From contig CAZCXU010000001.1 in NCBI GenBank assembly GCA_964502885.1, positions 93,352-157,351 on the forward strand: a DNA stretch of 64,000 nucleotides. Direction: 5' to 3'. Shown piece by piece: positions 30,783-34,055 of the stretch (its first letter is position 1; each line of letters starts with the position of its first letter). The notes below the pieces were generated by a model that saw only the letters and a program-made list of their open reading frames with translations, did not search any database and was not told the DNA's origin. This stretch comes from an uncultured Gammaproteobacteria bacterium (GTDB lineage Bacteria > Patescibacteriota > Microgenomatia > CAZETR01 > Amesbacteraceae). The translations under genes were made by a program, and so were the position numbers.

Positions 30783-31454
30783 TCAGTTACAAGGGATGCA
30801 GGTAATCAGGCCACATCCAGTCGTGCCGAGCGGAGTCCAAGAGCCGTTTGATTCGCATCGGAAACATGGACCATTTATGACAGATGTTGATCCTAACGTG
30901 CCTGCCGGAATGCATCTTCCAGTTGCAGATCCGCCACAGGCACACATGCCGGATGGTGGGGTGATGTCGCAGCCGGGATCTGTGGGGTTAGTACAAGGAA
31001 TCCCTGAATCCCAGGGATCACTACCAGGAGCAGGTGGGTTGGGGTCGTTGATCTGAGAGGAAATTTCCCCGATATGTCCGAGGTTGAATTGAATTAAATT
31101 GATGTTAAAGAGGGTGCGGAGAGCAAAAAGGAAACTGTAGGCTGAAAAAACAATTACCAGTCCAATTAAAGCCTGAACAACCTTTCTGCGGGCTTTTTCA
31201 ATTGCGTCTTTATCACCACCAGCCAGTATCCACTGAATACCGCCGATAAGCAGGAATATAAAAGAAAAAACTCCTGCCAGTTGGAGGAGAAGGTTTAGAA
31301 GTGTGGTCAATATCATTGATGGGGTGAGGCTGCGAATTGTCGTAAAATCCGGATCGACGTTTTGTTCTATGCCAATGTAGTCTTGTGCTTTTGCGGTTGC
31401 AGGCATTAAGAACATAGAAATAACTGTGGAGATGTGAACCAGGTGGTTTCGCAT
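30783..31454 (-). CDS. T4SS pilin-like paralog 8 with signal peptide and a C-terminal 12-Cys extension
   Basis: The signal peptide ends PATAKAQ. The core is LAGVFSFIFLLIGGIQWILAGGDKDAIEKARRKVVQALIGLVIVFSAYSFLFALRTLFNINLIQF. A roughly 90-aa tail follows: PCTNPTDPGCDITPPSGMCACGGSATGRCIPAG...CFRCESNGSWTPLGTTGCGLITCIPCN. Confidence 0.8.
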   Translation of the reverse strand: MRNHLVHISTVISMFLMPATAKAQDYIGIEQNVDPDFTTIRSLTPSMILTTLLNLLLQLAGVFSFIFLLIGGIQWILAGGDKDAIEKARRKVVQALIGLVIVFSAYSFLFALRTLFNINLIQFNLGHIGEISSQINDPNPPAPGSDPWDSGIPCTNPTDPGCDITPPSGMCACGGSATGRCIPAGTLGSTSVINGPCFRCESNGSWTPLGTTGCGLITCIPCN

Positions 31455-31460
31455 GGGTAA

Positions 31461-31802
31461 TTAGAGGTTTCTTAAGGTGAATCCAATCGGATTTACATTA
31501 AATAGGACACGCAATATATAAAGAATGGCGTAGGAAGAAAAGACGATAACTAAACCTATCAGCGCGTTGATGATTTTACGGCGGGCTTTGTCGATACCAT
31601 CTTTGTCGCCACCGGCAGTAATCCACTGAACTCCACCCCAGAGCAGATAAATAAAGAAGCCAACACCAGCAAGACCCAAGAGAAGACTGATGGCTGTAGC
31701 GACATAAGCGGAGGGTTTGAGGTTTGTAATGTAGTCGTAGTTGCTGTCACCAGAATTGACAGTGATGGGAACAAATTGAGCCAATAGGTGTTGGTTGATC
31801 AT
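31461..31802 (-). CDS. T4SS pilin-like paralog 7
   Basis: The N-terminus is MINQHLLAQ. The core is LAGVGFFIYLLWGGVQWITAGGDKDGIDKARRKIINALIGLVIVFSSYAILYILRVLFNVNPIGF. Confidence 0.8.
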   Translation of the reverse strand: MINQHLLAQFVPITVNSGDSNYDYITNLKPSAYVATAISLLLGLAGVGFFIYLLWGGVQWITAGGDKDGIDKARRKIINALIGLVIVFSSYAILYILRVLFNVNPIGFTLRNL

Positions 31803-32131
31803 AGTTCAGGAACGTTGAGGGAGAGAATCGAGACGCCAAATAACACTTCGATTATCCAAATGATTACGAATGAAGAAAGAAGTATGGCAATTCCAATAAG
31901 GGCATTACGAATACGGTGTGTGGCTTTCTGGACGCCTTCCTTATCTCCGCCGGCGGTGATATAGGCAAAACCACCCATTAACAAGTTGACGAAAAAATAA
32001 ATTCCACTTAATCCCATGACGGCATTTAAGACGTTTCTTAGTAGCAACTGGACCATGCTGTCAGCCTCGTTGACGTTGATATTTCCGATTTGACTGTTGA
32101 CCGCAGGGTTGACGATGGTAAACAGATACAT
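31799..32131 (-). CDS. T4SS pilin-like paralog 6
   Basis: The core is LSGIYFFVNLLMGGFAYITAGGDKEGVQKATHRIRNALIGIAILLSSFVIIWIIEVLF. It overlaps the next gene by 4 nt (ATGA). Confidence 0.75.
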   Translation of the reverse strand: MYLFTIVNPAVNSQIGNINVNEADSMVQLLLRNVLNAVMGLSGIYFFVNLLMGGFAYITAGGDKEGVQKATHRIRNALIGIAILLSSFVIIWIIEVLFGVSILSLNVPEL

Positions 32132-32134
32132 ATT

Positions 32135-32518
32135 TTAAGGTGAAGCAACAATTAACTGCAATCCGAGACGAAAGATGTCCAATCCCAGGAATCGGCCAAT
32201 GATTCCAATTAGTCCGTATGATCCAACAACTATGAACATACCCAATATGGAAGTGGAAAGACGTTTTTTGCTTACCTCCACGGTATTTTTATCGCCACCG
32301 GCACCAATCCACTGCATTCCGGAAAGGACTATTTGATAGATGAACCAAAGTGACGCGACTATAGTGAGTAAACCGAGGATAGAAGAAACAAATTTTTCCA
32401 ACATATCTCCGGGCCCTCCACCTGTGCCAGTCATAAAAAGTCCTGAATGTCCAAATGTACCCAGAGGTCCGACACCGTCAATGTTTCCCAAGTTGACTTG
32501 AGCTAAAAGGTTTCTCAT
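32135..32518 (-). CDS. T4SS pilin-like paralog 5
   Basis: I chose the start at ATG 32518 (MRNLLAQVNLGN...), which gives a 4-nt ATGA overlap with the upstream stop. The core is VASLWFIYQIVLSGMQWIGAGGDKNTVEVSKKRLSTSILGMFIVVGSYGLIGIIGRFL. Confidence 0.75.
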   Translation of the reverse strand: MRNLLAQVNLGNIDGVGPLGTFGHSGLFMTGTGGGPGDMLEKFVSSILGLLTIVASLWFIYQIVLSGMQWIGAGGDKNTVEVSKKRLSTSILGMFIVVGSYGLIGIIGRFLGLDIFRLGLQLIVASP

Positions 32519-32874
32519 GGGGTGAATATCCGTGGTGAAATAAGCGTGTTCCATCCATTAATACCATACAGGAAGAGGCCGATGACGCTGGCGATGACTA
32601 ATGATCCGGTGACTATGGCTAGTCCCAGAAAGGATTGCCAAATGCGCTCGTGGGCTTTTTGGACCATTTTGGGGTCGCCATTTGCGCTTAAGTATCCATA
32701 CCCTGCCAAAATTAGATTGATCAATGTGTATATACCAGCCAGGATTATGGAGAGTCGGATGAGGCTGCTAAGAATTAAGATAAGACCTTCGCCCTGAGTG
32801 CCAGCTGCGAGTCTGGGATTGTTGTATCCGGATGTCCCAAATGGATTGTCGATAGTGCCGAATGCTCCTAACAT
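32515..32874 (-). CDS. T4SS pilin-like paralog 4 (divergent)
   Basis: The core is LAGIYTLINLILAGYGYLSANGDPKMVQKAHERIWQSFLGLAIVTGSLVIASVIGLFL. Confidence 0.7.
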   Translation of the reverse strand: MLGAFGTIDNPFGTSGYNNPRLAAGTQGEGLILILSSLIRLSIILAGIYTLINLILAGYGYLSANGDPKMVQKAHERIWQSFLGLAIVTGSLVIASVIGLFLYGINGWNTLISPRIFTP

Positions 32875-32880
32875 AGTTTT

Positions 32881-33231
32881 TTAGACGAATGGCGGGTCAA
32901 TTAAGTTTACACCTGTAATGGTAGATATAATCTGAAGTATAAAATAAGCACTAATGACTAGCAATAAGCCCAGAACTCCATAAGTGACGGAATTTTTTCC
33001 TTGCTGAACACGTTGTGGAGGGTTGATTTGTCCGCCAAAGATAATTAGTAAGTAACCTCCGTGGATGATGAGATAAATGAAATAAAGACTGGCGATTGCC
33101 ATGGCATTGAGGAGTAAGAGAGAGACAATATCGCCCAATTGACCACGGAAAGGGGAGGTGGCCCCAACGTTGGGATGGTTGACGAAAAACTTGTCTTGCA
33201 AGTTTACTGGCGGGTTAAGAAGCTGAAACAT
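32881..33231 (-). CDS. T4SS pilin-like paralog 3 (divergent)
   Basis: The core is IASLYFIYLIIHGGYLLIIFGGQINPPQRVQQGKNSVTYGVLGLLLVISAYFILQIISTITGVNLI. Confidence 0.7.
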   Translation of the reverse strand: MFQLLNPPVNLQDKFFVNHPNVGATSPFRGQLGDIVSLLLLNAMAIASLYFIYLIIHGGYLLIIFGGQINPPQRVQQGKNSVTYGVLGLLLVISAYFILQIISTITGVNLIDPPFV

Positions 33232-33234
33232 TTT

Positions 33235-33540
33235 TTAGATTAAGTTGGTGCGGGTAATAGTTTGAATTATTTGCAAAATAAAGAAGGCACTAACTACAGT
33301 AAGGAGGCCAAGAAGCGCGTTGGTGATCTGTCTTTTTATCTGCATGAGTTTGGCTTCGTCGCCCAGGCTTCCCATATATGCGAATCCCGCTGTAATCAGA
33401 TGGTAAAGAAAATAGAGTCCGGCTCCGGCCATGGCAAAGAGAATAGTGCGAGAGGCGATTGTTGAGGGTAGTGTGGCACTGGTCGAGAATCGGCCGGAGG
33501 TGTGGATGAAATCGGGAATCTGAGCTAAATGTGAGTTCAT
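33235..33540 (-). CDS. T4SS pilin-like paralog 2 (divergent)
   Basis: The N-terminus is MNSHLAQ. The core is GAGLYFLYHLITAGFAYMGSLGDEAKLMQIKRQITNALLGLLTVVSAFFILQIIQTITRTNLI. Its start overlaps the upstream stop by 1 nt (TAATG). Confidence 0.7.
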   Translation of the reverse strand: MNSHLAQIPDFIHTSGRFSTSATLPSTIASRTILFAMAGAGLYFLYHLITAGFAYMGSLGDEAKLMQIKRQITNALLGLLTVVSAFFILQIIQTITRTNLI

Positions 33541-34055
33541 TAGAGTCGGAAACCAAATAAGGAGAGACCTAAGACGTTAAATCCTAAGAAGTTGAGAACG
33601 ACGATGGCGGAAGTGATAAGAATTAAACCTAGTACTGCCGAGGTGAGTGTGTCTTTGGCGGAATTAATTTTTTTAGGGTCGCCTTCAGCGGTGGCAATAG
33701 TGAAACCCGCATATACGATCAGAAGAAGAGTAGCCAGGCCGGCCAAACCAACTGCCCAAGTAGCAATAATCCAGACTGTATTTTGAGTATCGGAGGTGGG
33801 TATACAACCTAAGGCTGTCCTAATAGCACCAGTGCCTGCACAAAAAGGATTTTGAGCATTACATTCTGCTACAGTGTCGCAACAAAGATGTTCCATAGGG
33901 TTTGCACATTGAGGGCGGGCGACACAGGGACTGTAAGTACCCCATATTGTTCGAGAACGGATTTCACACCAGCTGTAAGTTGGATCTGGGAGGGATAATA
34001 CTGACGTGACAAATAAAAGTGTTGTGATAAGTATTCTAAGTGGTGCAGATTTCAC
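33540..34055 (-). CDS. T4SS pilin-like paralog 1 with signal peptide and an N-terminal 8-Cys module (first gene of the array)
   Basis: The start codon is GTG at 34055. The signal-like N-terminus is MKSAPLRILITTLLFVTSVLS, and the 8 Cys lie between about residues 29 and 84. The core is LAGLATLLLIVYAGFTIATAEGDPKKINSAKDTLTSAVLGLILITSAIVVLNFLGF. An extended -10-like TGCTAAACT (reverse complement of 34062..34070) ends 6 nt before the start codon. Confidence 0.7.
   Translation of the reverse strand: MKSAPLRILITTLLFVTSVLSLPDPTYSWCEIRSRTIWGTYSPCVARPQCANPMEHLCCDTVAECNAQNPFCAGTGAIRTALGCIPTSDTQNTVWIIATWAVGLAGLATLLLIVYAGFTIATAEGDPKKINSAKDTLTSAVLGLILITSAIVVLNFLGFNVLGLSLFGFRL

Follow-up and report, generated by a model that had tools for sequence, protein, structure and literature searches.

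Cysteine-rich modules on selected paralogs of a VirB2-like pilin array in a putative Candidatus Amesbacteria type IV secretion locus

The stretch of contig CAZCXU010000001.1 analysed here (64,000 nucleotides, called the window; positions are counted from its first letter) contains a tandem array of 11 genes for VirB2-like pilins on the minus strand (29485–34055). Cysteine occurs in only three of the 11 proteins, the first, the eighth and the last, and is confined there to terminal segments. With moderate confidence in the explanation as a whole, we assign the array to a chromosomal, monoderm-type type IV secretion system (T4SS) of a member of Candidatus Amesbacteria (Microgenomates, Candidate Phyla Radiation, CPR), with disulfide-stabilised modules on the outward-facing termini of pilins, where they would serve contact with a host. 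An earlier note on this DNA had proposed that disulfide-rich, knottin-like modules were grafted onto selected pilin paralogs. The selective placement was borne out, and it recurs in related arrays.

Cysteines and predicted topology of the eleven pilins

All 11 proteins match the T4SS_pilin family (PF18895), and seven of them reach its gathering score of 26.6 bits (paralogs 1, 3, 6, 7, 8, 9 and 10, with 27.7–42.1 bits). The other four are sub-threshold, yet they can be aligned and belong to the same array: paralog 11 scores 26.2 bits and paralogs 2, 4 and 5 score 18–20 bits. Paralogs 8 and 10 also match TrbC weakly (E-values of 3e-4 and 2e-5; 21.5 bits for paralog 8). The closest sequences to the core of paralog 8 are paralog 10 (55% identity) and paralog 9 (44%).

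Hydropathy analysis revealed two hydrophobic helices in each of the 11 paralogs, joined by a loop with a net charge of 0 to +2 (GGDKDAIEKARRK in paralog 8, as an example of a basic loop). AlphaFold2 placed the hairpin of paralog 8 at residues 45–77 and 82–116, with a predicted local distance difference test (pLDDT) score of 80–92. Because of the positive-inside rule, the loop is predicted to be cytoplasmic and both termini to lie outside the cytoplasm. This topology puts every one of the 20 cysteines that paralogs 1, 8 and 11 contain into an outward-facing terminal segment. The pili of F and pED208 have their inter-helix loop directed towards the lumen and the two termini on the outside (PMC5018250).

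Type IV pilus pilins were considered and rejected as an identity for these proteins. None of the 11 sequences has a class III signal peptide (G|F/M-T-L-x-E) or the N-terminal alpha-1 helix motif, and PF18895 and TrbC are matched instead. Four paralogs (33235–33540, 32135–32554, 31461–31802 and 29961–30326), like paralogs of the related locus L002 (see below), have no hydrophobic signal peptide and start with M-x(2-12)-L-[LA]-A-Q. In paralogs with a full signal peptide, this ends in A-x-A-Q or D-A-Q (AKAQ, IDAQ, AQAQ). The AQ-type motif may be a shared leader-cleavage site, or some paralogs may insert independently of Sec.

The cysteine counts are eight in paralog 1, ten in paralog 8 and two in paralog 11; the other eight paralogs have none. 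The Cys background is 0.68% in the 41 other open reading frames (ORFs) of the window, and the binomial probability of the observed enrichment is 3e-8 for the module of paralog 1 and 2e-9 for the tail of paralog 8. In paralog 1, the eight cysteines (residues 30, 44, 50, 58, 59, 65, 72 and 84) lie between the signal peptide and helix 1, just as the earlier note had described. For paralog 8 it had given a C-terminal tail of roughly 90 residues with 12 Cys. The tail is real, with corrected dimensions: it is about 95–100 residues long and contains ten cysteines, within residues 154–222. Paralog 11 indeed ends in CIARGIGCS (...DICIARGIGCS, cysteines at residues 123 and 130); its gene lies outside the segment 30783–34055 to which that claim had been attached.

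The tail of paralog 8 has a net charge of −4 and consists of two parts (Table 1). Its linker, which contains two of the cysteines, starts exactly where the sister paralogs end (...IGS, then stop). The C-terminal domain follows the pattern C-x-C-x(4-8)-C-x(10-14)-C-x2-C-x(3-5)-W-x(6-7)-C-x4-C-x(2,3)-C-[NP]-end, as defined from an alignment of five homologs.

Leader loops and C-terminal tails in related loci

The distribution of the modules was analysed in about 160 related loci, of which 80 species-level loci were collected with the neighbouring SpoIID gene as anchor and 80 metagenome loci with pilin-derived patterns. To locate the pilins in these loci, the window paralogs were made into a search profile. 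Related loci and contigs are labelled L001, L002 etc., and protein database matches P0002, P0003 etc.; P0003 corresponds to L002.

The 80 species-level loci yielded 376 non-redundant pilin ORFs, among which 223 are Cys-free, 14 have one Cys, 120 an even number of at least two and 19 an odd number of at least three. The binomial probability of this bias (120 even versus 19 odd) is 4e-19, a value that overstates the independence of loci which are phylogenetically related. The metagenome set has the same parity bias (77 even versus 13 odd). The placement of the cysteines in the 376 ORFs is likewise uneven: 828 are N-terminal to the hairpin, 105 are C-terminal to it, 17 are in the helices and none is in the inter-helix loop. 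Exactly two cysteines are found in 55 of the 376 ORFs, and for such family members with a single pair a disulfide loop would be the simplest role.

A bias towards even numbers of cysteines in exported proteins is a classical genomic signature of disulfide bonding; Dutton et al. reportedly took this approach in 2008, and it is reportedly also that of PMC2823432. We infer disulfide pairing, with good support, because the cysteines are conserved and their counts strongly even, and surface display, equally well supported, because of the predicted topology together with the F-pilus structure.

Array architecture was counted in the 31 arrays with at least seven pilins. The first pilin, on the SpoIID side, carries a Cys loop (C-x(5-25)-[GA]-C-[ILVM]) at 84–93 residues from its C-terminus in 27 of them. 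The consensus of this loop is C-x(5-25)-G-[IV]-x-T-A-[LI]-G-C-[IL], and it lies directly before helix 1. At the other end of the array, 12 of the 31 have a last pilin whose extreme C-terminus is F-x-[ILV]-C-x(2-9)-C; these are mainly Amesbacteria-like arrays (19 cases are listed overall). Only 39 of the 215 middle pilins have two or more cysteines.

Paralog 1 combines a family-wide and a lineage-specific element. Its Cys-72 and Cys-84 form the loop common to first pilins, and the six upstream cysteines represent a lineage-specific expansion, in place of which first pilins elsewhere have between 0 and 44 further cysteines. The Cys residues of paralog 1 are kept in the orthologs P0002, P0003/L002 and P0004, and P0002 and L002 also keep the upstream series C..C..C..CC..C. 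Non-conservation of the cysteines in orthologs, which would have spoken against the modules, was thus not what we found. The distal part of the module evolves fast. Identities between paralog 1 and its orthologs are 14–30% in the distal module, 35–86% in the proximal loop and 34–73% in the hairpin core. No Pfam match was obtained for the module even with the limit set to E ≤ 10.

The ectodomains of first pilins range from 0 to about 750 residues and contain up to 46 Cys. Other Microgenomates encode proteins of 420–834 residues, likewise with as many as 46 Cys (L074:4667-7171, L019:6579-8576, L039:2257-3732 and 3774-5249, L009:8699-9961), in which the PF18895 hairpin is confined to the very C-terminal end. 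The ectodomains N-terminal to it, of 300–750 residues, matched no Pfam family.

The linker and 8-Cys domain of paralog 8 were also found on pilins of four other assemblies (L007:5512-6162, L011:5433-5981, L083:3792-4427 and L144:3119-3688), where the linkers are poly-Gly or Gly-Pro. All five proteins, at a non-Cys identity of 24–38%, retain eight Cys, one Trp and three Gly without change; the search for similar Cys spacing in other genomes, which the earlier note had suggested, gave a positive result. Each of the five ends one residue past the last Cys. BLASTP aligned the window tail with that of L007 at an E-value of 9e-5. A profile of the five sequences, run in six frames over 1.77 Mb of related sequence, detected the domain only at pilin C-termini. 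An apparent tail match in L106 was discarded as two adjacent pilins joined by tblastn.

Searches beyond the related loci gave little. The domain has no Pfam match at E ≤ 10 and no PDB sequence better than an E-value of 1.6. A word-indexed search of 5.8 billion proteins with the tail and with a three-sequence tail alignment found nothing, the index requiring shared 5-mers. Exhaustive phmmer of the tail against 1.84 billion representatives returned only the protein itself, a Sushi-repeat protein (P0006) and a junk repeat. A metagenome scan with a tail-only pattern confirmed no relatives, and a scan with full-length tail-bearing pilins added two. P0006 was rejected: it is a eukaryote-type Sushi/CCP repeat protein of 1200 residues, and its E-value of 7e-14 is the sum of 17 weak repeat matches to FRCESNGSW..C. 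Identity of the tail with a Sushi domain was rejected as well, there being no Pfam Sushi match at E ≤ 10 and homologs with eight invariant Cys, not four.

The hairpin of paralog 8 is 53–55% identical to those of its own neighbours, paralogs 7 and 10, and 30–38% identical to those of tail-bearing pilins elsewhere. Either paralogs may have been homogenised within genomes, or the tail may move between paralogs. At least five other Cys-rich pilin tails, mutually unrelated and non-homologous to that of the window, follow Gly/Ser linkers. L127:5295-5885 and L134:1802-2401 share one type with 14 Cys, L109:5896-6450 and L052:13-519 have eight Cys, and L043:1386-1871 and L053:4056-4568 have six. Since at least six mutually non-homologous Cys-rich tails thus follow Gly/Ser/Pro linkers in different lineages, 'grafting' is, on this comparison, a fair description of something that has happened repeatedly.

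The variability between strains, which the earlier note had wanted analysed, is evident for the distal module of paralog 1, as described above. For the tail, the near-identical strain contig L001 (run SRR22184563, a second sample) encodes an identical paralog 8 protein; it differs from window positions 30568–32964 by eight substitutions in 2397 bp, all of them outside paralog 8, a number insufficient for judging selection.

Disulfides, host contact and alternative roles

The explanation that we propose starts from a pilin that would be a hairpin of two hydrophobic helices with a short basic loop and with its termini outside the cytoplasm. In a filament assembled like F-type pili, should one exist, these termini would be on the outer face. 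Small disulfide-stabilised modules would have been added to the outward termini of position-specific paralogs. The leader pilin (paralog 1) would combine the family-wide Cys loop before helix 1 with a lineage-variable Cys-rich expansion, the late paralog 8 would display a 50-residue, 8-Cys, knot-like terminal domain on a flexible Pro/Gly linker, and a C-x6-C mini-loop would form the end of the last pilin. Bulk subunits are probably the paralogs that lack Cys, above all 7, 9 and 10, which resemble one another. The decorated paralogs would most likely be low-copy, minor or tip subunits, presenting variable, oxidation-hardened surfaces to the host cell or envelope.

On this proposal the modules probably decorate the pilus, or the cell surface, for host contact. 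We suggest this role because the modules are variable, because the T4SS has an essential and unexplained role in epibiosis, because PrgB-type adhesins are reported absent from Patescibacteria systems (PMC12102498) and because of the distribution of VirB5, for which Patescibacteria are the only exception noted outside Gram-negative systems (PMC12857230). A cultured Saccharibacterium cannot do without its pilin array (PMC10633639; PMC12857230). In the sole genetically tractable Patescibacterium, T4SS and pilin array are essential to epibiotic life, and their function has been termed completely unknown (PMC11665869, PMC10633639).

Several observations weigh against this explanation. So far, none of the Patescibacteria T4SS has been shown to build a pilus, and a filament is treated as a possibility only (PMC12857230). 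Foldseek of the hairpin against the PDB returned only generic helical hairpins (best E-value 0.59), and a profile of the window paralogs against PDB sequences found no pilin. AlphaFold2 was run for paralog 8 with the window paralogs only and for paralog 1 with four sequences. It gave a confident hairpin in both cases, with pLDDT below 55 in the tail of paralog 8 and 32–67 in the module of paralog 1, and because of this low confidence no disulfide geometry can be read from the models. DsbA, DsbB, VKOR and exported thioredoxin, which the earlier note had wanted looked for, are not encoded by any of the 42 ORFs of the 64-kb window that were scanned against Pfam. Patescibacteria generally lack a respiratory chain (PMC10633639), and the oxidant for the disulfides is for this reason unexplained. 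The shared ancestry of the loci behind the parity test belongs here too. Finally, the tail domain is patchy (three of the 80 species loci and two metagenome contigs) and missing in L003, L004 and L002, the closest relatives; judged from this distribution it is dispensable for the secretion system.

In the first set of related loci, five of 81 CxxC ORFs passed a filter for thioredoxin-type motifs and were scanned against Pfam; none was Dsb-like, the matches being zinc ribbons or kinases. CPHC proteins beside the pilin arrays of L029 and L036 were tried as DsbA-like candidates and rejected as ComF-like double zinc ribbons.

As to the knottin-like character suggested in the earlier note, a knottin or inhibitor cystine knot has about 30 residues and six Cys with the connectivity I-IV, II-V, III-VI. 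The core of the tail has eight Cys in about 50 residues and the module of paralog 1 eight in about 55, and neither has the canonical knottin size or count. In a Pfam search for known cystine-knot or other Cys-rich families at a limit of E = 10, two of the modules had no match; the best values were 0.7 for a tail homolog and 2.8 for the Cys cluster of the giant protein described below.

The main competing view is that the modules are structural or serve assembly and are not adhesive. They could mark initiator, terminator or base subunits, or their intra- or inter-subunit disulfides could lock and harden a filament or fix it to the wall. Under this view the variable expansions would amount to decoration that is tolerated, or to antigenic or phage-evasion variation. 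We consider this rather improbable. It has weight for the proximal loop, the most conserved part of paralog 1 and present in nearly all first pilins of the larger arrays, which looks like an assembly interface and unlike a host-specific ligand site, and a strict position at the beginning and end of the operon recurs. Antigenic or host-range variation has itself been suggested for the arrays (PMC12102498). The tails built from linker and domain and the ectodomains of up to about 750 residues have the appearance of displayed domains and remain unexplained by it, and the rapid evolution of the distal modules agrees with an interaction surface subject to diversifying pressure. For the conserved loops, a role in structure or assembly is nevertheless a serious rival, and it may coexist with host contact; the conserved loop of the leader is likely to be an assembly or structural element.

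Binding of metal in place of disulfide formation is unlikely. It is suggested by the tail of paralog 8, in which Cys-197/Cys-200 and Cys-219/Cys-222 (C-x2-C...C-x2-C) are spaced like the knuckle pair of a zinc ribbon and AlphaFold2 places a beta-hairpin at residues 197–209. CxxC...CxxC is found in four of the five tail homologs, even counts would also fit four-Cys metal sites, and no gene for a thiol oxidase was seen in the window. L007, on the other hand, has C-x3-C as its last pair, no zinc-ribbon Pfam model matched at E ≤ 10, the segments are extracytoplasmic in the predicted topology, and the other four invariant Cys of the tail would have no role. Most Cys-bearing pilins, moreover, have a single pair, with which a four-Cys site is impossible. 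Very improbable in our view is that the core of a ribosomally synthesised and post-translationally modified peptide (lanthipeptide-, sactipeptide- or ranthipeptide-like) is represented by the tail, which would be released from a membrane-bound leader. The richness of the tail in Cys, Ser, Thr, Gly and Pro and its position at the extreme C-terminus would agree with this, whereas a stretch of about 50 residues with invariant Trp, Gly and eight Cys, set behind a long flexible linker, resembles a folded domain, leaders in the form of a two-helix membrane hairpin are not known, and LanB/C/M, radical-SAM or peptidase-transporter genes did not turn up among the ORFs of the window. Least probable of all is an artefact, either read-through after loss of a stop codon or misassembly, although the sister paralogs stop exactly where the tail begins and the closest relatives are tail-less. 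The open frame continues for about 98 codons past the stop of the sisters with its highly improbable ten Cys, and the assembly of a second sample encodes the identical protein. The tail is real coding sequence because the architecture, with its key residues, recurs in four other independent genome or metagenome assemblies, and these homologs effectively refute an artefact.

The secretion locus and its relation to known systems

The assignment of the pilins to a T4SS agrees with their neighbourhood (Table 1). They are genetically linked to VirB4, VirB3 and VirB6-like components in the window; the genes for the VirB4-like and PrgI/VirB3-like proteins are on the same strand as the pilins at a distance of 10–12 kb. 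The best syntenic matches of the SpoIID gene, with 71% identity, are in metagenome-assembled genomes of Candidatus Amesbacteria. As a candidate M23 peptidase, this neighbour of the array was rejected in favour of its SpoIID domain. The T4SS locus (15644–35868) directly adjoins dnaA/dnaN, which sit upstream (12917–15647). Such an origin-proximal placement has been reported for Patescibacteria T4SS (PMC12102498).

Table 1. Features of the pilin array and its neighbourhood in the window
Feature	Position	Strand	Basis and remarks
Paralog 1, leader pilin, 171 aa	33540..34055	-	PF18895 37.4 bits; signal peptide, 8-Cys N-terminal module, two-helix hairpin
N-terminal Cys module of paralog 1, residues 22-89	33789..33992	-	distal fast-evolving 6-Cys part and proximal conserved loop
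Leader-pilin Cys loop C72-C84 (FC-x-G-x-G-A-I-R-T-A-L-G-C-I)	33804..33842	-	motif search in arrays
Paralogs 2-7, Cys-free, 101-139 aa	31461..33540	-	PF18895 18-33 bits
Paralog 8, 223 aa	30783..31454	-	PF18895 34.5 bits; signal peptide, hairpin, Pro-rich linker, C-terminal 8-Cys domain
Linker of paralog 8, residues 124-169	30948..31085	-	paralog alignment; Pro/Asp/Ser-rich, extra Cys 154 and 162
C-terminal domain of paralog 8, residues 170-223	30786..30947	-	5-homolog alignment
Paralogs 9 and 10, Cys-free, 124 and 121 aa	29961..30754	-	PF18895 33.9 and 42.1 bits
Paralog 11, last pilin, 131 aa	29485..29880	-	PF18895 26.2 bits; C-terminal mini-loop
C-terminal Cys loop of paralog 11, C123-IARGIG-C130 (C-x6-C)	29491..29514	-	translation
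Giant exported protein, 1220 aa, 40 Cys	25798..29460	-	directly downstream of pilin array; no Pfam match
Polytopic membrane protein, 576 aa, VirB6-like	24021..25751	-	by position and topology only; no Pfam match
PrgI/VirB3-like protein with C-terminal CarboxypepD_reg domain	19840..20931	-	PF12666 E 5.7e-8
VirB4-like ATPase	17318..19183	-	TraG P-loop domain E 2.5e-29 and AAA_10
Membrane-anchored M23-like protein, 288 aa, 8 Cys	16162..17028	-	translation; Gly-rich linker, HLHLE motif
SpoIID-domain cell-wall protein	34081..35868	+	PF08486 E 1e-14; divergent from paralog 1; 7 Cys

The earlier note had pointed to further Cys-rich proteins of the locus. The giant protein indeed has a dense cluster, with 21 of its 40 cysteines packed within residues 721–861 (26878–27300; binomial P = 3e-18). 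Its orthologs at the equivalent position of related loci contain 28–44 Cys, and no similarity was found between the cluster and the Cys modules of the pilins. The M23-like protein is Cys-rich as stated, with eight cysteines rather than nine; it has an HLHLE motif but no Pfam match at E ≤ 1e-3 and is probably a cell-wall hydrolase. In agreement with the same note, the cytoplasmic proteins of the locus are Cys-poor (VirB4-like protein 0.32%, a 926-residue protein 0.22%, a 619-residue protein 0.32%).

Even Cys counts extend to other exported proteins of the locus, namely the 576-residue protein (four) and the giant protein. The four cysteines of the former (residues 41, 48, 55 and 69) are all in its N-terminal exported segment. 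Three genes on the plus strand lie between the SpoIID gene and smpB, in an order that is kept in the syntenic Amesbacteria locus L002. They encode a 241-residue membrane protein (35903–36628), an 81-residue ORF which is DUF5657 by synteny with L002 (36625–36870) and the 619-residue protein (36914–38773). Their products are Cys-free or Cys-poor and may belong to the secretion system. A YidC gene is located at 11302–12126.

Pilin arrays of this kind have been published. Patescibacteria T4SS contain arrays of two to 11 divergent VirB2-like pilins, most commonly in Microgenomatia (PMC12102498), and the window has the same family (PF18895) with 11 tandem paralogs and shares the monoderm-type locus of VirB4, PrgI/VirB3, a VirB6-like protein and a cell-wall hydrolase beside dnaA (Quinonero-Coronel et al., 2025, PMC12102498; Wang et al., 2023, PMC10633639). 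A full-text search for 'cysteine' and 'disulfide' in the publications describing these arrays found no mention of Cys-rich or disulfide modules on pilins, and a literature search combining Patescibacteria, cysteine-rich and pilin found none. The details of the Cys decoration thus appear to be undescribed: compared with the published arrays, the position-specific decoration, the even-Cys bias, the leader-loop motif and the 8-Cys C-terminal domain are described only here.

The conjugative pilins TraA, VirB2 and TrbC (PF04956) likewise have a signal peptide, a two-helix hairpin and a basic loop, and the exterior termini in the solved F and pED208 pili (PMC5018250) are where the modules of the window would sit. 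The classical pilins are, in contrast, single-copy and undecorated, and some are cyclised or acetylated, whereas the host of the window locus is a monoderm that lacks VirB5, VirB7, VirB9 and VirB10. Tandem VirB2 genes of Bartonella, Anaplasma and Rickettsia are thought to vary an exposed surface by amplification and divergence (cited in PMC12102498); there the variation is within the pilin, and in the window it is certain paralogs that have gained fused Cys-rich domains as separate units. Present in few copies at the tip of the pilus, VirB5 starts assembly and establishes contact (PMC12857230). A VirB5-like role could fall to the leader pilin and its variable ectodomain, as no VirB5 homolog has been reported from systems of this kind; the likeness of the leader to VirB5/TraC tip proteins is a functional analogy only, fold and sequence being unrelated.

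Two further systems offer models for the modules. The D-region of type IV pilus pilins is a C-terminal disulfide-bonded loop exposed on the filament. The short loop formed by a C-terminal Cys pair in paralog 11 and other last pilins is alike, by analogy, in a different superfamily with a different assembly machinery. The g3p protein of filamentous phages carries disulfide-bonded receptor-binding domains on Gly-rich linkers, is anchored by a hydrophobic helix and is present in low copy at one filament end. It has no sequence relation to the modules of the window and serves only as a model for a linker-plus-knot on a filament subunit.

A wider view, which we put forward tentatively and would accept in all its parts only as one possibility, is that the VirB2-like hairpin of Microgenomates and other CPR bacteria is a general anchor for hypervariable, disulfide-rich host-recognition modules. 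The first pilin would be a tip adhesin that substitutes for VirB5 and whose ectodomain sets the host range, and other paralogs would carry swappable linker-plus-knot domains, of which the 8-Cys C-terminal domain would be one. If this is true, many extracellular disulfides would have to form in organisms that have neither quinones nor a respiratory chain, and because of this an undescribed route of oxidative folding, or dependence on the host or the environment, would be needed.

The analysis points to a fixed array architecture, in which a leader with a conserved loop and a variable ectodomain is followed by plain middle pilins, optional pilins with a tail domain and a loop-ended last pilin. 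It raises the physiological question how dozens of exported cysteines are oxidised by organisms lacking a respiratory chain. The 8-Cys domain and the leader-loop motif could be turned into profile models for annotating such arrays and for comparing the type of module with host or habitat. The modules themselves are concrete candidates for the surfaces with which this T4SS machine would contact the host.

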